Shown: one piece after another, positions 1-40,138 of the stretch
Layout: each line of letters starts with the position of its first letter
How positions within the stretch are numbered: position 1 is the stretch's first letter
NCBI GenBank assembly: GCA_026395915.1
Contig: JAPLXU010000020.1
Location: 18,729 to 82,728 of the forward strand
Reading direction: 5' to 3'
Length of the DNA stretch: 64,000 nucleotides
Source: Candidatus Nomurabacteria bacterium
GTDB lineage: Bacteria > Patescibacteriota > Minisyncoccia > Phycocordibacterales > UBA9973
Notes under the pieces: generated by a model
What the model saw: only the letters and a program-made list of their open reading frames with translations
The model's database searches: none
Told to the model about the DNA's origin: nothing
Program-made: the position numbers and the translations under genes

Positions 1-400
1 AGGCGGAATCACCAAGTTTATGAAAAAACTTGGCACAGCATATTCAATGTTTTTTAATTTAAAATACCAAAGACAAGGTGCGCTTTTTGGCGGGCCATTT
101 AAGTCAAAGTGTATAAAGACAGATGATAATTATATGCGACAACTATTTGCGTATATTCATTTGAATCCATTGGATATCGAATTTTTTGGCTGGGATAAAG
201 ATAAAAATACATATGCATATGTGAATAATAAAAAAAAGAAAGAGTTTTTAGAATCGTATAAGTATTCCAGTTATCAGGACCATACTGGGGTTGATAGGGT
301 AGAAGGCAATATTTTAAACAAGAAATCTTTTCCAGATTATTTTCAGTCTCAGCAATCCTTTAAAGAGTTTATTGAGAATTATTTTATTCCCTTAAGCTAG
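1..400 (+). CDS. IS200/IS605-family Y1 (HuH) transposase, REP-associated tyrosine transposase (RAYT)-like; 5' end truncated at window edge
   Basis: C-terminal block QGALFGGPFKSKCIKTDDNYMRQLFAYIHLNP matches conserved C-terminal region of TnpA_REP/IS200 proteins (cf. E. coli RAYT IWQPRFWEHAIRNEKELRAHVDYIHINP); frame stays open back to position 2, so HuH N-terminus lies upstream of window. Confidence 0.6.
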   Translation, partial: GGITKFMKKLGTAYSMFFNLKYQRQGALFGGPFKSKCIKTDDNYMRQLFAYIHLNPLDIEFFGWDKDKNTYAYVNNKKKKEFLESYKYSSYQDHTGVDRVEGNILNKKSFPDYFQSQQSFKEFIENYFIPLS

Positions 401-487: not shown

Positions 488-2989
488 ATGAAAACTTCTT
501 TTTTGAAAATAGTTTCTGTTCTAGTTTTTTTCTTGGCAGTTTTTGTCTTGCCTTCTCATACTAATGCAAATAATCCTGCGTGTGGTGTTAGTACTAGCCC
601 GTGGGTGATTACAACTCTTAATTCTTCAACAGGAGGGATTTGCGATTGGACGGTTCCTGCCGGAGTTACACAAATACAAGTGAAAGTATGGGGTGGCGGT
701 GGAGCTGGAGGCGGAAATGGTGGTGATGATAATGGTGGAGGTGGAGGTGGAGGTGGCGCATTTGGAGAAAAAACGATTACTGTTGTTCCTGGAAGTACGT
801 ACACTATTTATGTTGGCTCTGGTGCCACCCATGGTCAAACTGAAGGAGGTCCTAGTTCTTTTGGCAGTTTAGCTGATCATTTAATTGCTTATGGAGGAGG
901 CAGTGGAAAAGTATGTACGGGTGGAGGTTGCGCGGGCGGAATTGGCGGTATTCCAGGTAATGGTTTTGCAGTTTCAACTAAAATTTATGGAAATGATGGA
1001 ATTCCTCCTGGTTACTATTTAGGTGATGGTATTTGGAGAGGTGGAAAGGGTGGTGATTCTGGGGAATGTTCTCTTAACGCTTCATGTGCGGGAAAAGGCG
1101 GTCTAGGTAGAAAAGGTACAGGGGATTATGATTCATGTCCAGCTCCTTACGATTACAACAGCAATGTTGACTGTGGAAATGCTGATGGGTATCAAGGAGG
1201 ATTTCCTGGAGGAGGAGGTGGAGGAGGTGGAGATTTTCACAATCGAGGTGACGGTTTAGGTGGCAAAGGTGGTGATGGTAAAGTTGTAATCACTGATACG
1301 ACTCCAGCAGTTCAAACTTACACCGTCTCTGGAACTGTTTCTGGATCACACGGTACTATCTCTCCAGCCACTCAAACAATTAATTCCGGAAGCACTACAA
1401 CTCTCACCGTAACTCCAAGCGCAGGATACACAGCTACAGTTTCAGGCTGTGGCGGTTCGTTGTCTCAAAATACTTTCACTACTGGCACGATAACTGCCAG
1501 TTGTACAGTTACTGCTAGTTTTTCCGCAACAGTTACTCCCGTAAACGGCGTCTGTGGCTCTGCTAATGGGACACCTGTTTCGTCAACTCCGTCCACTAAT
1601 TTTTGTTCAGTAGGTTCACCTTCTTCAGTTTCCGGTCCTGGCCCTTGGAGTTGGACATGCGCTGGTTCAAATAGTGGTTCAACTGCTTCTTGTTCGGCTA
1701 ATCTTGCAGTTACTCCTCCAGCCACACCTTCCTGTTCATCAGGTTCGTTTCCAATCGACCTCCATGGCTGGGCTTGGTCTTCGAATATCGGCTGGATAAG
1801 TTTCAATTCTTCTGACGCAGGCGCCGGAGGCGGTCCTTACAAAGTGTCTGTTGACGCTTCGGGGAATTTAAATGGTTACGCTTGGTCTTCGAATATCGGC
1901 TGGATAAAGTTCGGCGGACTTTCAGGTTTTCCATCTGGAGGAGGAACACAGGCTCAAGATGCGCAAATAAACGGTAACAATCTCAAAGGCTGGGCGAGAG
2001 CTCTTTCATATGGCGGAGGATGGGACGGTTGGATTTCTCTTTCAGGAGCGGGACCAAACTATGGTCCGACGATATCCGACAATACCATAACAGGATACGC
2101 GTGGGGCTCGGATGTCGTGGGCTGGATTGATTTCAGCGCGACCACTTCGGGTGGAGGGACGACGAACGGTGTCACTTGCGGGAATTCAAACGCCATGTCT
2201 GGTACTCTCACTCCCGCGTCTCCTTCTTGTACTATCGTGGCTGGAGCAAGCAGTTGCAGTGTAAATTTGACTTGGACTACGACGAATCCAGTTGGCACTT
2301 CTGCTGTCACTGCTACTGGAATGTCTAACATAAATGGAAATTCAGGCGGTCCTACGGCTTTTACGGTTCCATATTCTAGTAGGGTATTTCATCTTTTTAA
2401 TAATAATGTTGAACTTGCTCTAAGCAATGCCACTTCAAGTTGCGTGTCAGGCACGGTTTGGAATGGAAGTACAAGTACATGTGTGCCAACGCAAGTAGAT
2501 TTCTCTTTGTCGGCGCACTATATCGACAAGACGGCAATAGCTGATGGGGCTATTGTTCCATCACTTTCGGTACCAATTGGTTCTCCAGCTGATCTGAGTT
2601 GGACAATAGACGGTAATATGAAATCTTGTTTGACTATTCCTGCTGGGTCTGGATCTGATTGGAACAAATTGACGAACCAGACAGAAAGTCTTGGGAAAAT
2701 AGCAAGTGGAACATCTGGCAATGACACAGTTTCGCTCAATACTTTAGGTGATCATACTTTCCAAATTAGGTGTATTGATTCTAATGATGAAATCCAATCA
2801 CGAGCTATTATAATAAATGTGACTGCTTCTGCTTGTTCTACAACTCACTATAAATGTTCCGATGGTATTATTCCTGATACTGGTACAAATAGACATAATT
2901 ATCCTTCAAAGGTAACATGGGATTGCACTGTAAATGGAGTTACTTCAAACTGTACAGAAAATAAAGGCCCAGGCTGGCACGAAAATTAA
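488..2989 (+). CDS. secreted Gly-rich / Thr-Ser-rich surface protein with WSSNIGWI tandem repeats (833 aa)
   Basis: N-terminal signal peptide MKTSFLKIVSVLVFFLAVFVLPSHTNA; GGGGAGGGNGG and GGGGGGGG tracts; three GYAWSSNIGWI-like repeats; no catalytic motif recognised. Confidence 0.8.
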   Translation: MKTSFLKIVSVLVFFLAVFVLPSHTNANNPACGVSTSPWVITTLNSSTGGICDWTVPAGVTQIQVKVWGGGGAGGGNGGDDNGGGGGGGGAFGEKTITVVPGSTYTIYVGSGATHGQTEGGPSSFGSLADHLIAYGGGSGKVCTGGGCAGGIGGIPGNGFAVSTKIYGNDGIPPGYYLGDGIWRGGKGGDSGECSLNASCAGKGGLGRKGTGDYDSCPAPYDYNSNVDCGNADGYQGGFPGGGGGGGGDFHNRGDGLGGKGGDGKVVITDTTPAVQTYTVSGTVSGSHGTISPATQTINSGSTTTLTVTPSAGYTATVSGCGGSLSQNTFTTGTITASCTVTASFSATVTPVNGVCGSANGTPVSSTPSTNFCSVGSPSSVSGPGPWSWTCAGSNSGSTASCSANLAVTPPATPSCSSGSFPIDLHGWAWSSNIGWISFNSSDAGAGGGPYKVSVDASGNLNGYAWSSNIGWIKFGGLSGFPSGGGTQAQDAQINGNNLKGWARALSYGGGWDGWISLSGAGPNYGPTISDNTITGYAWGSDVVGWIDFSATTSGGGTTNGVTCGNSNAMSGTLTPASPSCTIVAGASSCSVNLTWTTTNPVGTSAVTATGMSNINGNSGGPTAFTVPYSSRVFHLFNNNVELALSNATSSCVSGTVWNGSTSTCVPTQVDFSLSAHYIDKTAIADGAIVPSLSVPIGSPADLSWTIDGNMKSCLTIPAGSGSDWNKLTNQTESLGKIASGTSGNDTVSLNTLGDHTFQIRCIDSNDEIQSRAIIINVTASACSTTHYKCSDGIIPDTGTNRHNYPSKVTWDCTVNGVTSNCTENKGPGWHEN
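1772..1907 (+). repeat. 28-bp exact direct repeat gcttggtcttcgaatatcggctggataa (1772-1799 and 1880-1907) encoding WSSNIGWI repeats
   Basis: read directly in sequence. Confidence 0.8.
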
Positions 2990-3021
2990 AAAATTTTAGA
3001 AACAGTTTATAAAAAAAACAT

Positions 3022-3042
3022 CCGCGGAGCATTGCGCCGCGG
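3022..3042. terminator. GC hairpin ccgcggagcattgcgccgcgg flanked by A-run (+) / T-run (-): likely bidirectional intrinsic terminator
   Basis: hairpin followed on minus strand by tgttttttttat; sits between convergent genes 488..2989(+) and 3114..3869(-). Confidence 0.5.
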
Positions 3043-3113
3043 TGTTGTGATACCTTCGATCGAGAAAAAAAGAACAATCAGGCTAACGACTTGCGTTACC
3101 TGCGAAAAAGTGA

Positions 3114-3869
3114 TCAGGCTGACGATTCACGTCGCCCTAGAGAGCGAAAGAGGATTGGAAATCCTCCAAAACATAAGATGAAAGCCCATGTCGATGGCTC
3201 TGGTACGGGCATAATGTCCAGAGTGACCGTGGTCTTCGCGACCATGCTACCCAATGAATACTGGGCAGTAAAATCATCTGTGGGCCCATAAAGTCCAAGG
3301 AGGGCTTGGATTGTTTGTGGCAGACTCGCGGGATTTGGCGTATGTTCAGAATAGGTGTTAAATAACCCAAACACTTGTCCCATAATGGCATTGTTCCCGC
3401 TCCCAGATAAAACGTTTCCCTGGGGGTCTTCACCATAAAGCTTTGGTCCAAATGAGATATTGACGATTGGGTTTGTAAATACGCCGAATCTATCTCCAAC
3501 ACTCCTCTCAACATCGTCAAATGTGAATGGAGTCTTACTAGAAATGACAACGCCGATGTACAATTTACCACCGGTTGAATTGTTGTCATACGTTATGATG
3601 TCAGCCACATTGATATGGCTACCGGAAGGGAGGAATACTGTCGGCGTCGCCGACAATCCCCTCATCGTTGCCATCATATTGTCCGTGAATTCCTGGGAAC
3701 CAGGCTCACCTGACGCAGGACCCACTGCCATGTAGATGTTAATTCCATCAATTGCCTGAAAATTTCCCTGCGCGCTCGCCGACGGGGCGAAACCAACGGA
3801 ACTGACCAAACCGACACTGACCACGGCGCTCATCATGAGCGCCACCAACGAGAAACGAGAATTCTTCAT
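3114..3869 (-). CDS. secreted protein with C-terminal PEP-CTERM-like sorting signal (251 aa); locally elevated GC
   Basis: signal peptide MKNSRFSLVALMMSAVVSVGLVSSVGFAPSASA; C-terminus VPEPSTWAFILCFGGFPILFRSLGRRESSA = PEP motif + hydrophobic helix + Arg cluster; GC visibly higher than flanks. Confidence 0.65.
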   Translation of the reverse strand: MKNSRFSLVALMMSAVVSVGLVSSVGFAPSASAQGNFQAIDGINIYMAVGPASGEPGSQEFTDNMMATMRGLSATPTVFLPSGSHINVADIITYDNNSTGGKLYIGVVISSKTPFTFDDVERSVGDRFGVFTNPIVNISFGPKLYGEDPQGNVLSGSGNNAIMGQVFGLFNTYSEHTPNPASLPQTIQALLGLYGPTDDFTAQYSLGSMVAKTTVTLDIMPVPEPSTWAFILCFGGFPILFRSLGRRESSA

Positions 3870-4016
3870 ATTATTGCTTTCTATTTTGTTTTAATCTTTG
3901 TTCAATGTGTGGTGTTTCCACCACGTTTGTTATTTAAAGTAAAGGGTATACCTTTTCACCTCTTTTGTCCAGTTAAAAATTTTGTTAAAAATTTTAGTAC
4001 GAGGTATACTATATGA

Positions 4017-5780
4017 ATGATAATTGATGAGGAACAGTTTAAGAAATTCATTTTAGATTCGAAGCTCGTTTCAAAAACTGACTTTGACGAGGCGATAAAA
4101 ATAGCCGAGACCAAAAAACAAAAAATTGGGAACGTCCTCCTTTCGGAAGGGAAGATATCCGAGACAGATTTGAAACGAGCGGAAGCTTTTGTCCTCGGAA
4201 TTCCATTTGTTAATTTAACAAAAGAGAAAATTGATTTTTCTGTGCTTTCTCTCATTCCCGAACCGATCGCGCGCAATGACAATATCGTCGCTTACAAAAA
4301 AACCGAGAAGGGGCTCGAGGTAGCCATGCTCGACGTCGACGATCTGCCTGTGATTGATTTCATAAAGAAGCGTTCTGGATTTAAAATTTTACCAAGATTG
4401 ACCGATACAGTTTCGATTAAAGCTGTGCTCGTGCAATACAGGAAAAGTCTAAAAGCGGAATTTCAAAATATCATTCAAAAAGAATCCAATTCGCTCGGAG
4501 TTTCAAAAGACGAAGGTGAAGAAGACAAACTTGGCGAAAAATCCGAATCAGAATTGCAAGAAATGGCGGAAGATCTGCCGGTGATAAAAATTGTAGATTC
4601 TCTGGTCTTTCACGCGATTTTGCAAAACGCGTCCGATATTCATATCGAGCCGGGTGAAAAAGAGCTCACAGTGCGTTATAGAATAGACGGCATCTTGCAT
4701 GACGCGATGATCTTGGACAAAAATGCCGGCGCTGGAATCACAGCTCGTATCAAAGTGCTATCGAATTTGAAACTCGATGAGAAGAGGTTGCCACAGGACG
4801 GCAGATTCAAGATAGAGCAGAATGGAGAGAAAATTTCTTTCCGTGTTTCTACCTTGCCGACATTTTTTGGAGAAAAGACAGTTATCAGAATTTTGAAAGA
4901 GAACGCGCACGGATTTACACTTGAAGGTTTAGGTTTTCATGGCGAAGGACTGGAACGAATCCATGCTTCCCTCAAACAAAAAACGGGAATGGTGCTTGCG
5001 ACAGGTCCGACCGGTTCCGGAAAAACGACGACACTTTACACGATGTTGGATATTTTGAACAGACCGGAAGTGAATATCTCCACCGTGGAAGACCCGATCG
5101 AATATCAGATGCCGAGAGTGAATCAGACTCAGGTCAAACCAGAAATCGGTTTGTCTTTTGCGAACGGATTGCGTTCTCTTTTGCGTCAGGACCCGGACAT
5201 AGTGATGGTGGGGGAGATCCGAGATGGAGAGACGGCTGGGCTTGCGGTGAATGCATCCTTGACTGGTCACCTTGTTCTTTCCACAATTCACACCAACAGC
5301 GCTGCCGGCGCGATACCAAGATTGATAGATATGGGTGTCGAGCCTTTTCTCATAACGGCGACGGTTAAGACGATCATCGCGCAGAGATTGATCCGCAGAC
5401 TCACTCCGAATAAAGAAAAATATTTCTTGTCTCCAGCTGAAATGAAAAACTTGGCGAAGGTCGTCGATATGGACAGAGTGTTAACTTTTTTGAAAACTGA
5501 GAAAATTGTCGGCGAGAAAGATACTTGGGACAAAATTCCTTTTTACAGAACAGTCAAAAGCGCTGAATTTGAAGATGGATATTCGGGTCGCATAGGTATG
5601 CACGAAGTTTTAAAAGTCTCACCCGCTATTAAAGAAATGATAATAGGAGGCAGTTCACAGGATGATGTGGAAACGCAGGCAAAAAAAGAGGGAATGATGA
5701 CGATGATTGAAGACGGAGTTTTTCAAGCAGTTTTGGGAGTGACCACTTTAGAGGAAGTGTTTCGAGTTGTTTCGGAGTAA
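4017..5780 (+). CDS. pilB: type IV pilus assembly ATPase PilB (GspE family)
   Basis: Walker A GPTGSGKTTTLYTML, GspE-N domain, Asp box and His box motifs; 587 aa. Confidence 0.9.
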   Translation: MIIDEEQFKKFILDSKLVSKTDFDEAIKIAETKKQKIGNVLLSEGKISETDLKRAEAFVLGIPFVNLTKEKIDFSVLSLIPEPIARNDNIVAYKKTEKGLEVAMLDVDDLPVIDFIKKRSGFKILPRLTDTVSIKAVLVQYRKSLKAEFQNIIQKESNSLGVSKDEGEEDKLGEKSESELQEMAEDLPVIKIVDSLVFHAILQNASDIHIEPGEKELTVRYRIDGILHDAMILDKNAGAGITARIKVLSNLKLDEKRLPQDGRFKIEQNGEKISFRVSTLPTFFGEKTVIRILKENAHGFTLEGLGFHGEGLERIHASLKQKTGMVLATGPTGSGKTTTLYTMLDILNRPEVNISTVEDPIEYQMPRVNQTQVKPEIGLSFANGLRSLLRQDPDIVMVGEIRDGETAGLAVNASLTGHLVLSTIHTNSAAGAIPRLIDMGVEPFLITATVKTIIAQRLIRRLTPNKEKYFLSPAEMKNLAKVVDMDRVLTFLKTEKIVGEKDTWDKIPFYRTVKSAEFEDGYSGRIGMHEVLKVSPAIKEMIIGGSSQDDVETQAKKEGMMTMIEDGVFQAVLGVTTLEEVFRVVSE

Positions 5781-5800: not shown

Positions 5801-7021
5801 ATGCTTTTCACATACAGAGCAAAATCAAAAGAAGGAGAAATAATGGAAGGAGCGCTAGAAGCTCTCGACCGTTTGACTCTCGCTCGTGACCTTCGAGGTC
5901 GCGGGCTTGTTCCCATCACAATTTCACAACAAAGCGAAAGTTTTTTTAGCAAATTCTCTTTGTCATTCTCTAACATTTTTTCGAGAGTAAAAACAGCCGA
6001 GCTGATTATTTTGACAAAAAATTTAAGCGGAATGTTGCGGTCTGGACTTTCGCTCTATCGAGCATTATCTGTTTTAAAAAAGCAAACAAAAAATCCAAAA
6101 TTAGATAAGATTTTGACATCTGTTTCCGATAATATAAATGCTGGTGAAAACTTGTCGTTTGGGCTTTCAAAATTTCCAGATGTTTTTTCTAAACTTTTTA
6201 TTTCGATGACGCGAGCAGGGGAAGAGTCTGGAAATTTGGCAGATGCTTTGTCAAATATTGGAATAAATTTGGAAAAGTCTCATTCCCTCACAAAAAAGAT
6301 AAAAGGAGCGCTCATTTATCCTGGTGTTATTTTTTCGGCGATGATCGTCATCGGTGTCTTGATGTTCGCTTTCGTCGTGCCGACTTTGGCAAAAACTTTT
6401 CAAGATCTCGGCGCTCCTTTGCCTGCCACGACCAAGCTTCTTATTTTTCTCGGCAACTTTTTTTCGAATCATTTAATTTTAACTTTCGTGATCATAATTG
6501 CTCTCGCTTTCGGTCTGTTTTCTTTTTTTAGGGCGAAATTTATGGAAAAGTATATTGATTTTGCGATTGTTCGTCTGCCTGTTATTGGCAATTTAGCGAA
6601 AGAAATAAATACTGCTAGAACTGCGCGCACTATGTCCTCTCTTCTCTCGTCCGGAGTTTCCATTACTCGCGCGGTAGAAATCACCGAGGACGTTGTGCAA
6701 AATATTTATTACAAAAAAATTTTAAATGACGCAAAAATCGAAGTGGAACGAGGCGCTCCTTTTTCTCAAGCTTTTGCAAACAGCAAAAATCTCTATCCGA
6801 TAATGATGTCGGAGATGATTCAAGTCGGCGAAGAGACTGGAAAATTGTCCGACATGTTGCTCCAGATTGCTCTGTTTTACGAAGAAGAGGTGGAAAACAA
6901 AACAAAAAATCTTTCCACAATTATAGAACCTCTCCTTATGCTTTTCATTGGCGCGGCGGTTGGATTCTTTGCTATTTCGATGATCTCGCCACTTTATTCA
7001 GTCATGGGGAGTATAAAATAA
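5801..7021 (+). CDS. pilC: type IV pilus platform protein PilC (GspF family)
   Basis: 406 aa polytopic protein with duplicated GspF domain signature; immediately downstream of pilB. Confidence 0.85.
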   Translation: MLFTYRAKSKEGEIMEGALEALDRLTLARDLRGRGLVPITISQQSESFFSKFSLSFSNIFSRVKTAELIILTKNLSGMLRSGLSLYRALSVLKKQTKNPKLDKILTSVSDNINAGENLSFGLSKFPDVFSKLFISMTRAGEESGNLADALSNIGINLEKSHSLTKKIKGALIYPGVIFSAMIVIGVLMFAFVVPTLAKTFQDLGAPLPATTKLLIFLGNFFSNHLILTFVIIIALAFGLFSFFRAKFMEKYIDFAIVRLPVIGNLAKEINTARTARTMSSLLSSGVSITRAVEITEDVVQNIYYKKILNDAKIEVERGAPFSQAFANSKNLYPIMMSEMIQVGEETGKLSDMLLQIALFYEEEVENKTKNLSTIIEPLLMLFIGAAVGFFAISMISPLYSVMGSIK

Positions 7022-7058
7022 AATCATTTTTTGTGTATTTCTCTGTGTTATAATAAAT

Positions 7059-8195
7059 ATGATGAGTAAATCACTTATTATCGTTGGAATATTTTCTTTG
7101 ATGGTTGTTGCAACTCTTGGAACACTTTTTTTTGTGCAGAAAAATAATGGAAACGAGAATGATTTAATTGCTAAAAAAAATAAATTACAGGGCGATTTAA
7201 TTATCGCAAAAAAGAAATTAAATAAAGACCAAAACACACTCGATATCATGACAGACAACCTCAAGAGCTCTTTTCCCTTTGCTGTTGCTATTCAAGACCA
7301 AATGAAAAAAAGTTCGAATATTGTCGGTCAAACTGATTTTATGTTTACCGACCCAGACGGATTAAACCCAGAGCTTATAATTAAAAATCTTCCAGCCGTT
7401 ATCCTTGTAAACAAAGAAAGGAAAAATATAAATCTTCTGCTTGAAAAATGGCAGGACAAGATTGATATTTTATCTGTTGAAAAAATTGACGCAAAAGAGA
7501 GTGAGCAAATTAAAAAAGACGTGCAGACGATTAAAACTTATTTAGCGGATCTTTCTCATTTAGTTGGAACTTTAACGCCTGAAAACTCCGGAATCTCTCA
7601 GTTTCAAATATATATTTATATATCAACTCTTCCTTCTGCGAATGCAATAGACGAGGTTCTTAAATCGCTTCAAGCGGCTATTGATGATTCTAAAAATAAT
7701 AATTCACAATTAGACATTCACTCTGTGACGGCAGATGATGTTGTTGTCCAGCAAGGAATAGTTGAGAAGACGCAAGCGGAAGTAACAGCATTAGAAGAGC
7801 AACTGGCGCAGATAGAAAAACAAATACAACAATCATCATCCGTTTCGACTTCTACTCCAGCTTCAAATTCCAATACAGATTCTAATTCTTCTTCTGTCCC
7901 TGATATTACTTCTGGTTCTGCCGATACCACTTCTACTTCATCTGCCACCAATTCAAATTCCAATACCACCTCTTCTGCTTCTTCATCTAATAATTCTGAC
8001 CAAACTAACATCGGCAGTGGAACTGATTCTAATTCGGGGAATCAAAATCAAAATACAAATAACGCGGTTGGAAACAGTAATGGAACGGGTTCATATGATA
8101 ATGGGACTTCTAGCAATTCTAATACTAGCAATCGTCCGGGCATCATAATACAACCTGGTCCGCCGAGGCTCATTGAGGGCGCTAATCAGTATTAA
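7059..8195 (+). CDS. bitopic membrane protein, coiled-coil plus Ser/Thr/Asn-rich low-complexity tail; pilus-locus associated
   Basis: N-terminal TM IIVGIFSLMVVATLGTLFFV, coiled-coil segment, 100-aa S/T/N tract; position between pilC and pilin genes. Confidence 0.6.
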   Translation: MMSKSLIIVGIFSLMVVATLGTLFFVQKNNGNENDLIAKKNKLQGDLIIAKKKLNKDQNTLDIMTDNLKSSFPFAVAIQDQMKKSSNIVGQTDFMFTDPDGLNPELIIKNLPAVILVNKERKNINLLLEKWQDKIDILSVEKIDAKESEQIKKDVQTIKTYLADLSHLVGTLTPENSGISQFQIYIYISTLPSANAIDEVLKSLQAAIDDSKNNNSQLDIHSVTADDVVVQQGIVEKTQAEVTALEEQLAQIEKQIQQSSSVSTSTPASNSNTDSNSSSVPDITSGSADTTSTSSATNSNSNTTSSASSSNNSDQTNIGSGTDSNSGNQNQNTNNAVGNSNGTGSYDNGTSSNSNTSNRPGIIIQPGPPRLIEGANQY

Positions 8196-9634
8196 TTTTT
8201 TACTTCTTGCCAAGAAAGTATTTGATATTGATCTGAAGTAAGAGGAAAATTTGGAGGCGGGGCGTAGAGCAAATTTGCATCATAATTTATGTTTCTAATT
8301 ATATAGCCTGTTTCGTCTGTAAAAGCAAATCCATATCTGGCGTAAGAAGCGATCATTCCGTAAAGTGAAATGACGGATCTTTTTGTGTAATCGCAGCCGC
8401 TTCCATTATAATAAAATCTTCCGACGGCTTTATGTTGCGCCATAAGCGCCCCGTCTATTTTTAGATTATTATCGCTGATCATTCCGACCATCACTCCACC
8501 TTGCGCTACTAAACCGATGGAATCTGTGCCGTCATAGTTGGTATAAGACAAATCGTTGTTTATTATAATATTTTTTAATTGAGTCGTGTCTGAAGGTTCA
8601 GGCAATAGGGACGCGGTTATCGTAAGTCGCGCTCCGTTTATTTGTCCATCAACCACAAGATTGTCTTGGATGAAGATAACGCCATTTGTTGGAAAAGCAT
8701 AATTGCCTAGAAGTGTTTGCGTGTTGATGCTCCAGCTCAAGTCTTCAGAGCCTGAGCTATCGCAGTGGTCCACACTTGCCCAAGAATTTATTTTATACAG
8801 ATCAAAGGTATCATTAGTTTTTAAAACGATATGATAACCAACAGATCCGCCTCCTGCTGTGTCTCGATAAAATCCACCACTTGTTTGCGCAGTCGTTTTT
8901 AATTTTGATACGTCATCTGTAAAGCCAGAAAAACTGATGACAGGTTGACCCATTGCGCGTCCGGCGGCAAAGACATCAGGACGAGCTGGAAGCGGGGTCG
9001 GCGATGTCGGATCATGAGTGCCTAGGCAAGTATGCACGCCATAAGAATTGCTGGTAGTGCAAGCGTCAGAATCAGAATCTGTATAGGTTGCCACTCCGCT
9101 GGTGACCAAGTTATGCGCAAGCCCGTCAAAGCGTATTCCTCCATTTGAGTGAACGGAACCAAAAACTTCTGTGCCTTCACCGAAACGCATTGCGCTATTT
9201 CCGGCAAAAGCGTGTTCGGCGATGGATGGTTTGGCAAGTTGGGCCGATATTTTTCGTAACTGTGTAGAATCAAGCGATGACGAACCAGTAGATTTTATTT
9301 TGACTAATGAAGAACCTTGCGTCGGGGCGGTAATATTAAGAGAAAATTGTCCAATCGTGTTTCCATTTTTATCTATCAGAGGATGAGCATAGCCAAGTCC
9401 ATAAGTACCGTCCGTATAATCAGTTGATGCGTGCGCCAAATGCCATCGATAATAATCTATTCCAGCTTCCGCTGATTGAAACGCCTGTTCGCGATTGTAA
9501 GTTATTCTGGCAGATTTTACAGAAGTGGCGGCAAAGCTAGCAAGCGCGCCGATAATCATTACCGCAATAGCCGCAAATACCAACGTTTGCACTATAATCA
9601 TCCCTTTATTTTTTCTTATGTTTTTCTTAATCAT
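8192..9634 (-). CDS. PilX-like pilus assembly / minor pilin protein (480 aa)
   Basis: N-terminal hydrophobic segment then REQAFQSAEAGIDYY resembling PilX_N motif; in pilin gene row. Confidence 0.6.
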   Translation of the reverse strand: MIKKNIRKNKGMIIVQTLVFAAIAVMIIGALASFAATSVKSARITYNREQAFQSAEAGIDYYRWHLAHASTDYTDGTYGLGYAHPLIDKNGNTIGQFSLNITAPTQGSSLVKIKSTGSSSLDSTQLRKISAQLAKPSIAEHAFAGNSAMRFGEGTEVFGSVHSNGGIRFDGLAHNLVTSGVATYTDSDSDACTTSNSYGVHTCLGTHDPTSPTPLPARPDVFAAGRAMGQPVISFSGFTDDVSKLKTTAQTSGGFYRDTAGGGSVGYHIVLKTNDTFDLYKINSWASVDHCDSSGSEDLSWSINTQTLLGNYAFPTNGVIFIQDNLVVDGQINGARLTITASLLPEPSDTTQLKNIIINNDLSYTNYDGTDSIGLVAQGGVMVGMISDNNLKIDGALMAQHKAVGRFYYNGSGCDYTKRSVISLYGMIASYARYGFAFTDETGYIIRNINYDANLLYAPPPNFPLTSDQYQILSWQEVKN

Positions 9635-10260
9635 AAATTACCTTTTATATTTCGGAGCGATACCTGTGTGGTAAATGTTATTGGCGCCGGCGCTCGATTA
9701 GGATCTGTGTCGGTTGTGATGGTTATTTTTACCAGTCTTATGGGCGACACATCAGCAGTTGATGAAAGCGCGGGTGTGGTGCCGTCATAGTCTTCGTCGT
9801 AATATTCAAAGATAGTAGAGTTGGTAACGTTAGGCACAAGGGTCGTGACAACCTCGCTCCCTGTGTAGCCTAACGGACTTCCTGTTGGCTTGATTACTCC
9901 CTTTTGTAGATTTGTCCCATTTAAAAAATATCTGACTCTTTCTTTCAATCCATCGTCGTATATATCAGAATAGAAAGTGAAACTTGTGGCACTGGCAAGA
10001 TTGATAGCATACCCTCCGTTACTGCCAGAGCTCGCTGTGCGAATTTCTGCCGCCATTGTTTTTAGAGCTGTTCTTCCAGCATTGACACTTCCCAATTCTG
10101 TATAGACAAAAGAATTATATATCCATATATTTCTGGAAAATAAAGTAAGCACTAGCACAATAAGCACAAAAATTGAAACTGCAACAAGTGTTTCAATCAA
10201 AGTGAATCCTCTTTGCCGACCAAAAATCTGACAGATTTTGTTTTTTAGTTCACTTTTCAT
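9631..10260 (-). CDS. type IV pilin-like protein (prepilin N-terminal methylation motif)
   Basis: GFTLIETLVAVSIFVLIVLVL class III signal motif; 209 aa. Confidence 0.75.
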   Translation of the reverse strand: MKSELKNKICQIFGRQRGFTLIETLVAVSIFVLIVLVLTLFSRNIWIYNSFVYTELGSVNAGRTALKTMAAEIRTASSGSNGGYAINLASATSFTFYSDIYDDGLKERVRYFLNGTNLQKGVIKPTGSPLGYTGSEVVTTLVPNVTNSTIFEYYDEDYDGTTPALSSTADVSPIRLVKITITTDTDPNRAPAPITFTTQVSLRNIKGNL

Positions 10261-23784: not shown

Positions 23785-25578
23785 ATGCAAGAAAAAATAG
23801 AAAAATTAATAAAAGATGTTTTATCTGAAATGTTTGATCCAGATGAAAATCTAAATTATACATTAGAACATCCGTCCGATCTAAAAAATGGAGATTATTC
23901 CACAAATGTGGCGATGGTGTTTTTCTCTACTTTAAGACAAGATGTAAGAAAAAGTATAGGCTCAGATAATATTAATATTTCAGGTGATTATAATCTTGGA
24001 CATTTTGAGTGGAAAACACCGAGAGACTGTGCAGAATCTATTAAAAATAAAATTCTGGAAAATAAACCAGATTTTTTAGCAGATATCCAAATCGCGGGCG
24101 CTGGCTTTATCAATTTTCATTTGTCACGAAAATTTTTCGGCAGGAGCGTTGAGAAAATTTTGAACGATGGGGAAAATTTCGGGAAAAATAATTTATTGAA
24201 AGGAAAAAAGGTGATGGTGGAATATACTGATCCAAATCCTTTCAAACCGTTTCACATTGGGCATTTAATGACGAATACGATAGGTGAATCAGTCGCAAGA
24301 ATTTTAGAATTTTCCGGCGCTGATGTGGCGCGGGCGAACTATCAGGGCGATGTCGGGCTCCATGTGGCGAAAGCTATTTATGGTCTTCTCAAAAATGAAA
24401 ATTTGCAGAGCAAGAAAGGTTCTCACAATTTACAGGCGGAAAATATCGGTCAAGCCTATGTGTTTGGCGCGGGAGCTTATGAAGATAATCTAGAGGCAAA
24501 AAAAGAAATTGATGCGATAAACAAAAAAATTTACAACAAAAGCGATAAAAAAATAAATGAAATCTATGAATGGGGTTTTGATGTGACAATGGAAGCTTTT
24601 GAAGATTTGTACAAAATGCTCGGCACGAAATTTGATTTGTATTTTCTGGAAAGCCAAATGATGTTGATCGGAGAAAAAATTGTTCATGCGAATGTAGATA
24701 AAATTTTTGAAAAATCCGACGGCGCTGTCGTTTTCAAGGCTGAAAAATACGACCCGAAACTTCACACACGAGTTTTTATCACCTCACAAGACTTGCCGAC
24801 GTACGAGACAAAAGAGCTCGGGTTGACAGAAGAAAAATTCAAGACCGATCCGGACATGGATTTGTCTATCGTGGTTACGGCGAGCGAACAGATGGAATAT
24901 ATGCGTGTGGTCGCGAAAGCCATTTCGCTCATTCATCCGGAATTTGAAAAAAGAATGAAGCACATCACTCATGGCATGATGCGTTTTGCTTCAGGCAAGA
25001 TGGGTTCTCGCAAGGGGAATGTGATCACCGGCGAGTCTCTCTTGAACGATGTTCGCGATATGGTTTCGGAAAAAATGACTGACCGCGATTTTTCCATAGT
25101 CGAACAAGAAAAGATAGCGACTGATGTCGGTGTGTCTGCGATAAAATATTCAGTTTTGAAGCAAGCTATCGGTGGAGACATCATTTATGATTTCGAAAAA
25201 TCTATTTCTTTCGAAGGGGATTCCGGTCCGTATCTGCAATATTCTCACGCTCGCGCGAATTCAATTTTGGAAAAAGCGCAAAAAGAAAATATTTTGCCTG
25301 ATCCGCACGCAATGCCTTCAGAAATTTTCGAGGTGGAAAAATTATTGTACAAATTTCCCGAAATTGTTCTGCGTTCCGTGGAAGAATATGAACCGCACTA
25401 TGTCGCGAATTATTTGATAGAAGTCGCCCGCGCCTACAACAGCTTTTACGGGAACAATTTGATCGTTGACAAAAAAGACAAAACTTCCGGCTACAAAGTG
25501 GCTATCACTTATGCCTTTACTTTTGTGATGAAAAACGGTTTGCACCTCCTCGGCATCGAAGCCCCAAAGAAAATGTAA
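23785..25578 (+). CDS. argS: arginine--tRNA ligase
   Basis: class I HIGH-like PNPFKPFHIGHLMTNTIGE, DALR C-terminal region; 597 aa. Confidence 0.9.
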   Translation: MQEKIEKLIKDVLSEMFDPDENLNYTLEHPSDLKNGDYSTNVAMVFFSTLRQDVRKSIGSDNINISGDYNLGHFEWKTPRDCAESIKNKILENKPDFLADIQIAGAGFINFHLSRKFFGRSVEKILNDGENFGKNNLLKGKKVMVEYTDPNPFKPFHIGHLMTNTIGESVARILEFSGADVARANYQGDVGLHVAKAIYGLLKNENLQSKKGSHNLQAENIGQAYVFGAGAYEDNLEAKKEIDAINKKIYNKSDKKINEIYEWGFDVTMEAFEDLYKMLGTKFDLYFLESQMMLIGEKIVHANVDKIFEKSDGAVVFKAEKYDPKLHTRVFITSQDLPTYETKELGLTEEKFKTDPDMDLSIVVTASEQMEYMRVVAKAISLIHPEFEKRMKHITHGMMRFASGKMGSRKGNVITGESLLNDVRDMVSEKMTDRDFSIVEQEKIATDVGVSAIKYSVLKQAIGGDIIYDFEKSISFEGDSGPYLQYSHARANSILEKAQKENILPDPHAMPSEIFEVEKLLYKFPEIVLRSVEEYEPHYVANYLIEVARAYNSFYGNNLIVDKKDKTSGYKVAITYAFTFVMKNGLHLLGIEAPKKM

Positions 25579-27176
25579 TGACTCAAGATCAAGCGTTAAA
25601 TATTTTAAAAACAGGTGCGAATATTTTTCTGACTGGCGAGCCGGGGGCTGGAAAAACGCACACGATAAATACTTTTGTGGATTATCTGCGATCTTGTGAC
25701 GTAGAGCCGGCTATCACTGCTTCGACAGGCATCGCGGCTACGCATATCGGCGGAATGACGATCCATTCTTGGAGCGGAATAGGCGTTCGGAAAAAATTGG
25801 ACAAATACGATTTGGACAAAATCACGAGCAGTGAATATATTTCAAGGCGCATACTCCGCACTCGGGTGCTCATTATTGATGAGATTTCCATGCTCTCCAC
25901 GGACATGCTCGACATGGTGGACGCGGTTTGCAGAGAAGTAAAACAAAACGATGAAGCTTTTGGCGGTATTCAAATTATTCTCGTTGGCGATTTTTTTCAG
26001 TTACCGCCGATTGTGAAAAAAGAAGAGCCGAATAAACAAGCAACTTTCCTTGCGGAAGTCCGACTTTCGCGGATTTTTGCTTACAGTTCCGGCGCTTGGG
26101 AGAGGGCTCGACCTGTCGTTTGTTATTTGAGCGAACAGCATCGGCAAGATGACGCTGATTTTCTTTCACTCCTTTCGGCTATTCGCGCTGATGATGTTTC
26201 GGAAGCGCATCAAAGTTTTATAAATGCCAGACAGATTGATCATGATGATATGCCGGAAAATATCACAAAACTTTTTTCGCACAATGTTGATGTGGATAGA
26301 GTGAACGACGCTGAGCTTGCAAAATTAGAGGAAGAAAAAAAGTCTTTCAAGATGTCTGCGAGCGGGAATGAAAAATTAGTGGAGACGCTCAAGAGAGGTT
26401 GTTTGTCGCCGGAAAATCTCGAGCTCAAAATCGGGGCGGTAGTTATGTGCACCAAGAATAATCCGAAAGAAAGATTTGTGAATGGCACTCTCGGGACTGT
26501 CATAGGCTATGAAGAATTCAGTGGACAACCTATCGTTAAAACGAGAAATGGGCGGAACATAGTTGTCGCGCCGATGGACTGGACGGTGGAAGAAAATGGA
26601 AAAATTCGCGCGCAGATAACTCAGATTCCGCTTCGGCTCGCTTGGGCTATCACTGTGCACAAAAGTCAGGGGATGAGCATGGATGCGGCAGTGATGGATC
26701 TGTCGCAAGTGTTTGAGTTTGGACAAGGTTATGTGGCGCTTTCTCGAGTTCGCAGGCTCTCAGGTCTCTATCTGCTCGGCATAAATGAACATGCGCTCAA
26801 AGTGCATCCAGAAATTTTGAAAAAAGATATTGATTTCAAGAAAAAATCCAGCGAAGCGGAGCAAGTTTTCGGCAAGATTTTGGAAAATGATCTCAAAAAA
26901 ATGCACGAGAACTTTGTCGTTGCTTGTGGAGGGAAAATTAGAAAGGACAGAAAGGCCGATTTGGGAGCTCGGCTCCCAAATCGGCCTTCAGCCGAACCCT
27001 TCTCCGAAATCAGGGAGAAACATCCAAACGCGTATCGTCCGTGGGATAAGGAACAAGACGAAGAATTGGGAAAAATGTTCATAGGAGGTTCGTCCATCCC
27101 CGACCTAGTAAAAAAATTCGGCAGAAAAAGGGGAGGAATAACAGCGAGATTAAAAAAACTCGGGTTGAGGGAATAG
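25578..27176 (+). CDS. PIF1/RecD-family helicase with C-terminal HTH_40-like tail
   Basis: Walker A GEPGAGKTHT, VHKSQGMSMDAAV, YVALSRVRRLSGLYL; C-terminal ...GSSIPDLVKKFGRKRGGITARLKKLGL; TAATG overlap with argS. Confidence 0.8.
   Translation: MTQDQALNILKTGANIFLTGEPGAGKTHTINTFVDYLRSCDVEPAITASTGIAATHIGGMTIHSWSGIGVRKKLDKYDLDKITSSEYISRRILRTRVLIIDEISMLSTDMLDMVDAVCREVKQNDEAFGGIQIILVGDFFQLPPIVKKEEPNKQATFLAEVRLSRIFAYSSGAWERARPVVCYLSEQHRQDDADFLSLLSAIRADDVSEAHQSFINARQIDHDDMPENITKLFSHNVDVDRVNDAELAKLEEEKKSFKMSASGNEKLVETLKRGCLSPENLELKIGAVVMCTKNNPKERFVNGTLGTVIGYEEFSGQPIVKTRNGRNIVVAPMDWTVEENGKIRAQITQIPLRLAWAITVHKSQGMSMDAAVMDLSQVFEFGQGYVALSRVRRLSGLYLLGINEHALKVHPEILKKDIDFKKKSSEAEQVFGKILENDLKKMHENFVVACGGKIRKDRKADLGARLPNRPSAEPFSEIREKHPNAYRPWDKEQDEELGKMFIGGSSIPDLVKKFGRKRGGITARLKKLGLRE
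26953..26987. repeat. perfect 16-bp-stem palindrome aggccgatttgggagc-tcg-gctcccaaatcggcct inside helicase C-terminal extension (in-frame)
   Basis: read directly; GC-rich island within AT-rich CDS. Confidence 0.8.
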
Positions 27177-27248: not shown

Positions 27249-30200
27249 ATGAGTATACGAAAATTTGTTTTCTTGTTTTCGTTTATCATTTTTCTCTCCT
27301 TCGCTCCGAAGGTATTTGCCGAGACTCATGTGTCGGGGAATATAGACACAAACACAACTTGGAGTTTGGCTAATAGTCCGTATGTGGTGGATAACACAGT
27401 TATTATTCTTGCAGGAAATACACTTACTGTTGAACCTGGGGTTATCATGAAGTTCTCTTCTAGTTTTGGGAGTTTGGAAGTCGAAGGTACGTTAGATGTT
27501 CCTGGCACAGCAAAATTACCTATTGTTTTCACTTCATACAAAGATGACAACGCGGGAGGTGATACAAATGCCGACGGGACAGCTTCTTTTCCTGAATCTT
27601 TAGATTGGAGAGGAATTATTTTTCATCCTAATTCTGTTGGAAATATTTCCCACGCTTCAATACTTTTTGGCGGGCAATATATTTTCATGTCCTCAGGTTT
27701 CGTTTCTTTTCCTATGATTAGACAAAATGGCGGAACGCTTGCACTTGATAATGTCGAGCTGAGTCCTTACACTTCGCTTGTGGACGGACTCGGGCAAACT
27801 GATGGAAATACTACGATTGCAAATTCACAAATAAAGAATGCGGGGAATAGTATCTCTATCTCTGGTGGCGCTCTTTCTATCCATGGCAGCGTTATTGATG
27901 GAATTAACTATGCACTTAAAAATGACAGCGCGAATATGGTTGATGCGAAAAATAACTGGTGGAGCGATCCTTCTGGTCCTACGCATATAAACAATCCTAA
28001 TGGTGTCGGTGGCCGTATTTCTGGCGACGTATCGTTTTCTCCTTGGCTTAATGTCGATCCGACCATTGCTTTGATAACACTTTCCGCGTCTCCGGATGTA
28101 GGCTTCTCTGGAGATGCGACTAACGCTAGTATTGAACCAAACTTTGGAAACACTGGCACCGTCTTCACATTTAAAACGGTTTATACCAATTCTTTCAATC
28201 AATCGCCAACGAGTGTGCGTCTTGTGATAACAAGAGGCGACAGCAATGCGCCGTGCCAAGCGATAGGCGGTGGAGGTCCGCCACAACCTGCTTTTTTCTT
28301 CAAACAAATTTTTGCTATTACCGCATACGCTTCGGAAGATGACGGATGCGTGATGAGTTTAGACATGAATAGCTCAGCAATATTGCATGACGGTGATTAT
28401 GCCAATGGAGAACAATATGTCATTAAGCAAAAATTTCCTGTCGGAAATTACAAGTATCGTATAGAAGCGGATAATACGCGATACCCAGAAACTGGAAGTT
28501 TTGCATTTCAAGTGAACGAAGATTGTTGCTCAAGCATTCTTTTCTTGCCAGGGATTGAAGCGAGCAGATTGTATAAGCAAAAAACAGCGCTTGGTTTGCT
28601 GGTGGAAGATCAGCTTTGGGAACCGAATGTAAACAGTGATGTGGAAGATTTATATCTGAATATCGACGGGACGAGCAAAAATTCGAATATTTATACGAGA
28701 GATATTATAAAAGAAAGCAATGTTCCGATTCCGATGGGTCCTCTTGGGCAGAACATTTATAAAAGTTTTTCCAATGCGATGGATGGGTTGGTTGATGATG
28801 AAAAAATCGGCGAGTGGAAACCGTTTGCTTATGATTGGCGACAAAGTGTCGATGATATTGTAAATAACGGAACAAAGTATCAAAGTGGCAATGTGTCGCT
28901 CGTCGCTACATTGCAATCACTTGTCAATTCAACTAAAAATAAAAATGGAAAAGTAACAATTGTCGCGCACAGCAATGGTGGACTTTTAGCTAAAGCTCTT
29001 TTGAAAAAACTTCAGGACGATAAAGTTGCGGGAAGAAATAATTTGATTGACAGTGTGGATGTGTTGATTTTAGTTGCAACGCCGGAGATAGGCACAGCAA
29101 GCGCCGTGCCGGTGGTGTTGCATGGATATGATCAAGAAATTGCGGGCGGTTGGTTGATGGATGAAGTTCGCGCTAGGGAAGTGGGGCGAAACATGCTTGG
29201 AGCCTTCGGACTTTTGCCGAGCAGAGAATACATCAATAGGGTAAGCGCTTCGCCAGTGACATTTGTGGATAACTTAATTCCTTCGAATGTCACAACGAAA
29301 CTTGTCAAAACTTTCGGCAGCGCGATTGATTCGTATGCCGAATATAAAAGTTTTCTTTTTGGCGGAGAGGGGAGGATAAATCCAACAATAAGCCAAACAA
29401 ATTTACCGATTAGTTTGTCGCAAAGTTTGTTTGCTAAAACAGAAAGTTTGCATGATAGCATTGACTCTTTTGTTCCGCCGGCGAGTTTGCGAGTGATTGA
29501 AGTCGCTGGTTGGGGATTGGACACCATTGCCAGTTTTGAATATTATCCGAGATTAGATTGTGGTAGTAATCTTTGCGCTTCGTATATATTAGACGAACGG
29601 CCTCGTTTTACTTCAGATGGAGACAAAACAGTGGTTGTCCCAAGCGCGCAATATATGAGTGTTAATGGAAATGCGGAGAAATATTGGGTGGATTTACCCG
29701 TCCACAATAGACAATTACCATTAGGATTAAGAAGAAATAGAAATCATGGAGATATTTTAGAAGTTACTTCATTAAATAATTTGATTCAGTCTGTTGTAGA
29801 GAAAAAGGATATCATCTTTGATGATGTTTTGAAAAACTCTGAACCCGCAGACAACTCAAATCGTTTAAGATTGTCCATTCACTCACCAGTTACACTAGAT
29901 GCATACGATGCAAATGGAAATCACACAGGAAAAATTTGTCCGCTAACCTCAGACTTTTGTTACAAAGAAGAAAATATTGTCAATTCGTCTTATGTGGAAT
30001 TTGGAGAAGGAAAATATCTCAATCTTCCGGAAGATCAAATGAAAAGTATCAAACTTCAGGGCACAGATGTGGGAACATTTACATACAGTTCAGAAAAAGT
30101 TTTGCCAAATGGAACTTCTATTACTTCATTTTTTGTAGATATTCCTGTAACAACACAGACACAAGCACAGATAATTCTTAATCCAAGCACTCAAACACCG

Positions 30201-36883: not shown

Positions 36884-37381
36884 GTGGGATTATTATATAA
36901 TAGGCTTATGTCAATCATCCTTGATATTTTAGAAGAACTAAATCATAGCAATCTTCGTTACAAGGGAATGCATGTAAATTTGCTTGGCATACCTAAATTA
37001 TCTTCATATAAATATGAATCTCTTAAATCTGGAATTAGTAAATTAAAAAAGAAGCAATATATAACCAAAAACAATTCCGGCTGGATAATGACACCCAAAG
37101 GGAAGAAATATTTTGAAAGAAAATATAATTCCTTAACACAATTTGATTCTCCTTTTTCAAAAAATAATTCTAAAAATTTGCTTGTCATGTTTGATATACC
37201 AGAGGTAAAAAAAGCGGAGAGGGAATGGTTCAGGTGGCATCTCAAAAAGTTCAATTATATCATGATCCAGAAAAGTGTCTGGCGAGGACCTTCTCCTTTA
37301 CCTAAAGAGTTTCTTGATTATGTGAAAAAGATAGGACTTCGGAAAAACTTAAAAATGCTTAAGATATCTAAAACTTATTAG
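36884..37381 (+). CDS. winged-helix regulator with C-terminal Cas2/PaaX_C-like signature (165 aa)
   Basis: C-terminal LLVMFDIPEVKKAEREWFRWHLKKFNYIMIQKSVWRGP (hhh-FDIPE ... R ... L ... GF ... QxSVW); paralog at 44039. Confidence 0.55.
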   Translation: MGLLYNRLMSIILDILEELNHSNLRYKGMHVNLLGIPKLSSYKYESLKSGISKLKKKQYITKNNSGWIMTPKGKKYFERKYNSLTQFDSPFSKNNSKNLLVMFDIPEVKKAEREWFRWHLKKFNYIMIQKSVWRGPSPLPKEFLDYVKKIGLRKNLKMLKISKTY

Positions 37382-40024: not shown

Positions 40025-40138
40025 AGAACACTCCATTTTTCACAACAGGGTTCATCACCCACTTTCCACAAATTCCCTCATGTTTGAGGTAAACTTGCCC
40101 GGATAAGTTTGTTGTTTTCTAACAATATGATAGCATAG

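Follow-up and report, generated by a model that had tools for sequence, protein, structure and literature searches.

A putative laterally mobile surface-protein cassette with a PEP-CTERM-class tail next to pilB in a Nomurabacteria-like Patescibacterium

The DNA analysed here (the window) comprises 64,000 nucleotides of contig JAPLXU010000020.1 from a Candidatus Nomurabacteria bacterium. At positions 3114-3869, on the minus strand, the listing of its open reading frames (ORFs) contains an intact ORF for a 251-aa secreted protein with the C-terminus ...MPVPEPSTWAFILCFGGFPILFRSLGRRESSA, whose tail belongs to the PEP-CTERM class. The gene is convergent with a surface-protein gene on one side and divergent from the type IV pilus gene pilB on the other, i.e. 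it forms a single-gene operon, and its upstream intergenic region is 147 bp long. The gene, the parts of its protein and the two neighbours are as follows (pLDDT, predicted local distance difference test).

488..2989, plus strand: conserved partner gene in convergent orientation; its product, a secreted protein of 833 aa, has a Gly_rich_2 domain, WSSNIGWI repeats and a C-terminal tail that is itself conserved
3114..3869, minus strand: coding sequence with an ATG start, 251 aa, secreted protein with a PEP-CTERM-class tail
3117..3206, minus strand: C-terminal sorting-signal-like tail, residues 222-251, made of VPEP, the 14-residue hydrophobic stretch WAFILCFGGFPILF, RSLGRR and ESSA
3213..3770, minus strand: mature domain, residues 34-219, predicted alpha/beta sandwich (AlphaFold2 pLDDT 86-96 for residues 41-220)
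3771..3869, minus strand: Sec-type signal peptide, residues 1-33, with a cleavage site predicted by inspection between ASA and QG
4017..5780, plus strand: pilB (type IV pilus ATPase), the divergent neighbour and synteny anchor, followed by pilC and pseudopilin genes

PilB of the window shares 64-88% identity with its counterparts in 80 GTDB species representatives, each a metagenome-assembled genome of Patescibacteria (labelled Nomurabacteria, Paceibacterota or Parcubacteria). Judged by this comparison and by synteny, the host is a Nomurabacteria-like Patescibacterium, as expected from the preliminary description of the locus, which had suspected a cell of the candidate phyla radiation (CPR). 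CPR/Patescibacteria have no outer membrane or lipopolysaccharide; no outer-membrane or exopolysaccharide (EPS) genes were seen in the 64-kb window.

The N-terminus of the protein, MKNSRFSLVALMMSAVVSVGLVSSVGFAPSASA followed by QG, has by eye a basic n-region, a hydrophobic core and the ASA-QG junction, and the AQG cleavage context is kept across the homologues. From this signal-peptide sequence the protein reads as Sec-exported. AlphaFold2 modelling with the family alignment gave a confidently folded core of ~185 aa (pLDDT >90), with low confidence for the signal peptide and the tail. The mature domain is thus confidently predicted to be an alpha/beta sandwich without a recognisable relative: no Pfam or NCBIfam domain was recognised in it, sequence and profile searches of PDB with the protein gave no match, and a Foldseek comparison of the domain model with PDB and BFVD gave 0 matches at a TM-score above 0.3.

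An exhaustive HMMER search of 1.84 billion representative proteins identified 14 homologues (E-values from 4e-30 to 8e-4, 24-42% identity), and the whole family amounts to 15 clusters at 50% identity in this set. Word-index searches with the protein or with the family alignment returned essentially the query itself alone, on a 5.8-kb Logan contig that includes both junctions of the gene with its surroundings. A metagenome scan with four family sequences found one locus (L094), and a scan of viral contigs for the family found nothing. Judged by these counts and identities, the family is rare and rapidly diverging.

The tail of the protein, VPEPSTWAFILCFGGFPILFRSLGRRESSA (the protein's end reads ...DIMPVPEPSTWAFILCFGGFPILFRSLGRRESSA), has the PEP-CTERM architecture VPEP-STWAFILCFGGFPILF-RSLGRR-ESSA. 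An aligned equivalent is present in 10 of the 14 homologues, which end at the same position with (V/I/T)PEP(S/T/N/I)x followed by a hydrophobic run of 13-17 residues and a basic cluster. The window copy itself scores below the curated cut-offs, with 13.3 bits against 20.7 for PF07589 and 16.7 against 35 for the PEPxxWA-CTERM model NF035944, and it was not reported in the TIGR02595 scan. Seven of the ten homologue tails nevertheless pass TIGR02595 and/or PF07589 (P0002, P0006, P0007, P0008, P0009, P0012 and P0014). The TIGR02595 scores, at a cut-off of 16 bits, are 25.7 for P0002, 22.1 for P0012, 20.3 for P0014, 19.4 for P0008, 19.3 for P0009 and 19.2 for P0007; those for PF07589, at a cut-off of 20.7 bits, are 26.4 for P0008, 25.8 for P0014, 22.8 for P0009, 21.3 for P0006 and 20.7 for P0012. 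Because the homologues pass these models though the window copy fails, the assignment to PEP-CTERM holds, by model score, at the level of the family, with the window copy as a divergent member. A secreted protein with a tail of this class was what the preliminary description had proposed; its word "textbook" was too strong for the copy at hand.

Conservation within the family points in the same direction. Both prolines of the PEP motif (P223 and P225) are conserved in at least 90% of the sequences of the family alignment, at a mean column identity of only 26%. In the other four homologues the helix-basic tail is replaced by an extra domain of ~70 aa ending with FFRL or YFRAIY, and there the motif reads PAP, PES or NPP. 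Since the motif decays in these four tail-replaced members, conservation of PEP tracks the tail and not the fold. Conservation of the motif together with the tail is what a sorting signal would predict, and a tail that appears to be under selection implies a recognition partner.

The ~70-aa C-terminal domain, ending with FFRL, YFRAIY or FLRLRY, belongs to P0003, P0010, P0011 and P0013. The same domain ends a GC-rich secreted protein of 416 aa (L002, 7626-8876, minus strand) beside the pilB locus of a relative. It has no Pfam or NCBIfam match, and could serve as another type of C-terminal module for sorting or anchoring.

An exosortase of the EpsH/Xrt type would have eight or more transmembrane (TM) segments and match PF09721/TIGR02602. 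No exosortase is present among the multi-TM ORFs of the 64-kb window: several TM segments occur in ComEC, an AI-2E transporter, PilC and FtsK alone, and the small membrane ORFs have no Pfam match. The earlier claim that the surrounding DNA holds no exosortase is therefore upheld for the window, as its multi-TM ORFs are all otherwise assigned or without matches. In 1.6 Mb of related loci the multi-TM clusters correspond to H+-PPase, PilC, ComEC, MFS, TerC/DUF475, EamA, TMEM43, DUF1361, DsbB and an ABC transporter; none of these is an exosortase, and a sample of this composition cannot show genome-wide absence. A survey of 2,622 ORFs (80 aa or longer) from the window and loci L001-L081 gave the gene at 3114-3869 as the only good match to a C-terminal PEP-hydrophobic-basic pattern, two other matches being spurious ORFs. 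The family copies in the loci fetched for them also match this pattern, and no second type of cargo was seen in the 2,622 ORFs. A search of the accessible open-access literature turned up no report of an exosortase or a PEP-CTERM protein in CPR/Patescibacteria.

These results bear on the simplest alternative, a plain C-terminal membrane anchor, in which the tail tethers the domain without any sorting enzyme and VPEP is structural, for example as a rigid proline-rich stalk at the membrane. The lack of both an exosortase and other PEP-CTERM cargo in the window and the 1.6 Mb of related DNA would be natural for an anchor. So would the tail ends, which are variable and partly atypical (...GRRESSA in the window copy, ...LNQSAKRI in P0004, a 21-aa extension in P0008), and the substitutions between loci L083 and L094, which are concentrated in the tail and accompanied by indels. 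An anchor does not explain why PEP is invariant across copies of 25-40% identity and turns into PAP, PES or NPP precisely in the members without the helix-basic tail, or why curated PEP-CTERM models accept seven of the tails. The hydrophobic stretches, of 13-17 residues with glycine and proline, are, moreover, short for a permanent anchor and characteristic of sortase-type signals. We consider a plain anchor rather unlikely.

Eight independent genomic contexts of the family share one arrangement. P0002 (locus L082), P0008 (L091-93, on a contig of 107 kb) and, in L094, a P0004-like copy are all next to pilB, at the very site of the window gene, on Nomurabacteria-type contigs. The family genes of these three loci are 30-42% identical, divergent from pilB and convergent with a gene for a WSSNIGWI surface protein, whereas their pilB products are 84-87% identical to PilB of the window and of other Nomurabacteria-type loci. 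P0004 itself (L083) is located on a 1.6-kb contig where only the convergent surface-protein gene is visible; it is 97% identical to L094, and the few substitutions between the two cluster in the tail, with indels. P0005 (L085), P0006 (L089) and P0009 (L095) are not beside pilB or are on short contigs, and they too are convergent with a homologue of the surface protein. The convergent partners in the eight contexts are all mutually homologous (E-values from 1e-5 to 1e-135). P0014 belongs to a 470-kb contig whose gene set is CPR-like, and its convergent neighbour encodes an unannotated protein. By pilB, the carriers are not each other's nearest kin: the window is 88% identical to the non-carrier L002 and 85% to the carrier L082. 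The family therefore appears to be essentially an accessory gene of Patescibacteria, this being the assignment of every classifiable context, with a patchy distribution and a coupling to one partner gene.

The same contexts make an assembly chimera or contamination, that is, a foreign fragment joined into a Patescibacteria contig, extremely improbable. The local anomaly of GC content and codon usage described below is what such a fragment would produce. The gene and both junctions nonetheless recur at 100% identity in the Logan assembly of SRR20698638, which may derive from the reads that also gave the window, and homologous cassettes are embedded alike in JGI and ENA assemblies of other samples.

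Two loci with family members contain putative further mobile elements. Locus L098 (1-20699, GC ~0.5), which holds the distant member P0018, encodes SIR2 and HerA, a Gabija-like OLD-TOPRIM protein with UvrD, a helix-turn-helix protein, Eco57I-type methyltransferases and a large serine recombinase that adjoins the family member. In L089, ~5 kb from P0006, small ORFs are clustered at 6885-9548 together with one for a Zot-like ATPase (weak match to PF05707), perhaps an inovirus-like element on a Patescibacteria contig.

In the window, the gene and its flanks at 2990-4016 (1,027 bp) fill the spacer between the surface-protein gene and pilB. The non-coding features of this segment are listed below (dG, predicted folding free energy; z, its deviation from shuffled sequences).

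2989..2999, plus strand: left 11-bp direct repeat AAAAATTTTAG, at the cassette edge, abutting the stop codon of the surface-protein gene
3011..3046, minus strand: intrinsic-terminator-like hairpin with CCGCGG stems followed by U8, dG -16.5 kcal/mol, z -2.35
3064..3102, minus strand: weaker first hairpin and U-rich run after the stop codon, dG -8.8, z -0.89, no better than shuffles
3909..3924, minus strand: leader or divergent intergenic hairpin, z -3.6 (minus strand) and -3.2 (plus strand)
3945..3972, minus strand: promoter-like element, CTGGACA, 15 nt, TATACC, inferred from carrier alignments
3987..3997, plus strand: right 11-bp direct repeat AAAAATTTTAG, just upstream of the pilB -10 box TATACT at 4005-4010

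No homologue of the family was detected by tblastn in 80 GTDB Paceibacterota pilB loci (1.47 Mb), where 60-100 bp separate the end of the surface-protein gene from pilB. At the empty site of these relatives, the terminator hairpin AAAAAATCCCC...GGGGATTTTTTG runs directly into the pilB -10 box TATACT. L082 keeps this ancestral terminator, and there a 10-bp sequence, ATTTTTTGTT, is duplicated at both ends of the cassette. The chance of a shared 11-mer such as the pair of repeats in the window is ~1e-3 in mononucleotide shuffles. No integrase adjoins the cassette; a fragment resembling an IS200/Y1 transposase is found 2.7 kb away, at 20-400.

Several non-coding elements are common to the cassettes of the window, L082, L091 and L094/L083: the -35-like TTGGACAAAA, present in all carrier loci, the -10-like GGTRTAC, a hairpin, and AAAACAAAATAG before the start codon. 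The promoter-like element of the window was not flagged by a consensus scan. A terminator with CCGCGG stems is present in three of these four cassettes, at the equivalent place in L082 and L094, and the hairpin at 3011..3046 is, by its sequence, the predicted terminator of the cassette itself. Since the non-coding elements are shared, the whole cassette, and not the ORF alone, is homologous among carriers. Hairpins at the position equivalent to 3909-3924 occur in L082, L091 and L094 with a different sequence. A consensus structure for this leader hairpin across carriers was rejected, as the alignment gives it no support; each locus has a hairpin there. The preliminary description had the gene bounded by terminator-like hairpins, which is true of the two downstream ones with their U-runs, but the upstream one lies in the 5' leader and is not a terminator of the gene. 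Scans of the window for Rfam families and tRNAs gave no match.

The composition of the gene sets it apart from its surroundings, as the preliminary description had noted. Its GC content is 0.488 compared with a window mean of 0.404, the highest among real genes, and this elevation is real and moderate. GC content at third codon positions (GC3) is 0.50 compared with a mean of 0.37 (standard deviation 0.076), rank 2 of 50 genes, and at second positions (GC2) it is 0.47, rank 4 of 50. Compared with the other genes of the window, as had been suggested for the genome, synonymous codon usage is the second most atypical of 50 (z = -5.56 in a likelihood test conditioned on the amino-acid sequence). 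Amino-acid composition as the sole cause of the GC elevation is ruled out by this conditioning. Codon bias linked to expression is ruled out as the cause of the GC3, as the translation and recombination genes of the window (for EF-P, S6, SSB and RecA) have GC3 of 0.30-0.44. In the carriers L091 and L094 the family gene has a GC3 of 0.47-0.53 against 0.19-0.35 for the host genes; on the GC-rich contigs L085 and L090 it matches its neighbours. The adjacent hypervariable surface-protein gene has a host-like GC3.

Another strong codon-usage outlier of the window is the gene at 39287-40036 (minus strand; z -5.74, GC3 0.52) for a 249-aa secreted protein. It has no Pfam or NCBIfam match and may be another foreign surface-protein gene.

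An atypical gene with a sorting tag invites the explanation, raised in the preliminary description, of a recent and decaying import from an exosortase-bearing diderm, the tag being a functionless relic. Its codon usage and GC3, its absence from 80 relatives, the flanking direct repeats and the sub-threshold tail of the window copy are all compatible with this, as is the location of a distant member in a mobile/defence island of an organism of GC ~0.5, beside a serine recombinase. The synteny largely refutes it. The nearest kin are found in Nomurabacteria-type contigs, at the same site and with homologous flanks; the best homologue among the 1.84 billion representatives is only 42% identical; and the ORF is intact, its core confidently folded and the gene pair kept in eight contexts. 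We regard such an import as very improbable. The search for a donor thus returned homologues (14, at most 42% identical) but no close donor. What stands of the proposed horizontal origin is the atypical composition and the absence of the gene from the site in 80 relatives; what falls is a lone import from an EPS-producing Gram-negative bacterium. The atypical codon usage rather points to lateral movement or cassette replacement among Patescibacteria. Given the patchy distribution, the deep protein divergence and the unameliorated GC3, recurrent cassette exchange from a pool of GC ~0.5 fits better than one ancient insertion or one recent import.

Taken together, these observations favour, with a probability of roughly 0.55, a laterally mobile surface-protein cassette of Patescibacteria, whose conserved PEP tag implies a processing enzyme encoded elsewhere. 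This estimate covers, jointly, the proposal that 2990-4016 is a self-contained single-gene cassette of ~1 kb with a promoter-like element, leader hairpin, coding sequence and terminator.

The gene, its family, the tail conservation, the synteny, the insertion and the composition are observed, and the processing, its enzyme and the surface function are what we infer, with a three-step mechanism modelled on PEP-CTERM/exosortase (PMC1569441) and on PGF-CTERM/archaeosortase. The protein would first be exported by Sec, with its short hydrophobic helix and basic cluster holding it transiently in the cytoplasmic membrane. A dedicated peptidase or transpeptidase encoded elsewhere in the genome, possibly of exosortase/archaeosortase type or another intramembrane protease, would then recognise VPEP. 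Finally, this enzyme would either free the domain or attach it to the cell surface. The displayed domain could contribute to attachment alongside the adjacent surface protein and the type IV pilus apparatus, a role suggested by the constant pairing of the family with a giant surface protein and a type IV pilus locus.

Several observations weigh against this proposal. The window tail falls under the curated cut-offs, has a proline within its 14-residue hydrophobic stretch and terminates with ESSA; the tail ends of P0004 (...LNQSAKRI) and P0008 (21-aa extension) are also atypical. No exosortase-like protein was found in the window and 1.6 Mb of related loci, mostly pilB neighbourhoods together with ~10% of one genome, and no second PEP-CTERM cargo in the ORFs surveyed, again ~10% of a genome. 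Two contexts, L084 (flank GC 0.55-0.64) and L098, lie outside the taxonomically classified ones, the latter being a defence/mobile island. Finally, a GC3 of ~0.5 persists despite deep divergence at a shared site, for which simple vertical descent or one transfer is inadequate.

A bolder possibility is that Patescibacteria run PEP-CTERM-type sorting without a canonical exosortase: a single fast-diversifying cargo, encoded beside a giant surface protein and the pilus genes, would be read by an unrecognised enzyme, which would couple its domain to the cell surface or to the giant adhesin, and GC3 of ~0.5 in genomes of GC3 ~0.25 would reflect continual cassette exchange. We hold this to be distinctly unlikely. 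More speculatively within it, the tag could be read by the exosortase of the epibiont's host bacterium.

The cassette places a PEP-tagged family in an unexpected lineage and locus, as the PEP-CTERM system was defined in EPS-producing bacteria with an outer membrane. Its location in a pilus and surface locus thought to mediate attachment of the epibiont offers a handle on surface decoration in CPR bacteria. A canonical exosortase in carrier genomes would make this an ordinary system, newly placed; if there is none, a new processing enzyme would be implied.

PGF-CTERM/archaeosortase A (ArtA) has the same tripartite signal logic and enzyme superfamily as PEP-CTERM/exosortase, in single-membrane cells with a surface layer. 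The family described here resembles it in the tripartite C-terminal signal and in the envelope type expected for CPR bacteria, but the signature is PEP, not the archaeal PGF, and no archaeosortase homologue was detected in the available DNA.

With PEP-CTERM/exosortase (EpsH, XrtA/B) itself the family shares the signal peptide, the C-terminal PEP, short hydrophobic helix and basic cluster, a mature domain without known homology, and members that pass TIGR02595 and PF07589. PEP-CTERM genes typically stand alone as single-gene operons behind a long intergenic region (Haft 2006, PMC1569441), and the operon at 3114-3869 with its 147-bp upstream region is of this kind. The 2006 definition ascribes an outer membrane and EPS genes to every PEP-CTERM bacterium (Haft et al. 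2006, PMC1569441), and the median for classical systems is eight cargos per genome (Haft 2006, PMC1569441). In contrast, the gene of the window belongs to a Patescibacterium and is a single cargo with no exosortase in the available DNA, no EPS locus or sigma-54 element was seen there, and the window copy is under the curated cut-offs. In Nostoc (CrtB, PMC12188702), exosortase cargo is needed for motility and adhesion dependent on type IV pili, a link to the pilus that is echoed by the pilB-adjacent location of 3114-3869.

LPXTG/sortase systems of monoderm bacteria have an analogous tripartite signal in single-membrane cells, and LPXTG tails are the top noise matches of the PEP-CTERM model (Haft 2006, PMC1569441). 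The family, however, has no LPXTG motif, and its VPEP(S/T)-type tails match PEP-CTERM and not LPXTG models. The flocculation-associated PEP-CTERM protein PepA (NF033554) and the small families NF038129 and NF038126 are similar in length (~200-260 aa), signal peptide and PEP-CTERM tail. Weak matches to such families run through the tail and sometimes beyond it (18.4 bits for residues 86-237 of P0007, 23.1 bits for P0014), far under the cut-offs of 50-100 bits, so that there is no membership, and the mature domain is unrelated at detectable levels.

The giant secreted proteins encoded upstream of pilB in L002-L081 (~9900-9960) and in the window (2940-2989) are hypervariable, 312-2928 aa long, and carry WSSNIGWI repeats. 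Their C-terminal end is approximately [KR][KS]P-x-[FY]-[IQ]-E-[NGDS]-COOH, in the window ...KGPGWHEN, with a variant ...C-x(3-5)-S-x-x-E-E/F. Conserved at the level of sequence, it appears to be a C-terminal signal, so far undescribed, of CPR surface proteins.

The pilB promoter region has a compact layout in the relatives. In L002-L008 and L036 (~9930-10000), as in the window (4005-4016), the pilB -10 box (TATACT or TATAAT) lies ~7-10 nt before the ATG, and in the same relatives it is fused to the T-run of the terminator hairpin of the preceding gene. This spacing suggests that the pilB transcript could be leaderless or near-leaderless. A few kb upstream of pilB, odd GC-rich genes (0.48-0.59) occur in L005 (6373-7065), L013 (5016-5897), L023 (6479-7375) and L036 (4018-5331), those of L005 and L036 with secreted-protein-like starts; this stretch has the appearance of a hot spot for foreign genes. 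The 126-aa ORF at 20-400 (plus strand) matches only the C-terminal part of a 220-aa protein of L036 (7979-8641). This full-length homologue scores 25.4 bits for Y1_Tnp, and the gene is upstream of the surface-protein gene in both genomes.

Elsewhere in the window, small PaaX_M/Cas2-like proteins are encoded at 36884-37381 and 44039-44620 (E-values 8e-11 and 3e-20), and no CRISPR array or other cas genes were noticed near either. Other genes encode an LCAT/esterase-like secreted protein of 1117 aa (27249-30602), a PG_binding_1 surface protein of 1139 aa (56978-60397), a Fic/DOC protein (60990-61880) and a PIF1-type helicase (25578-27176). Such accessory content is typical of CPR.

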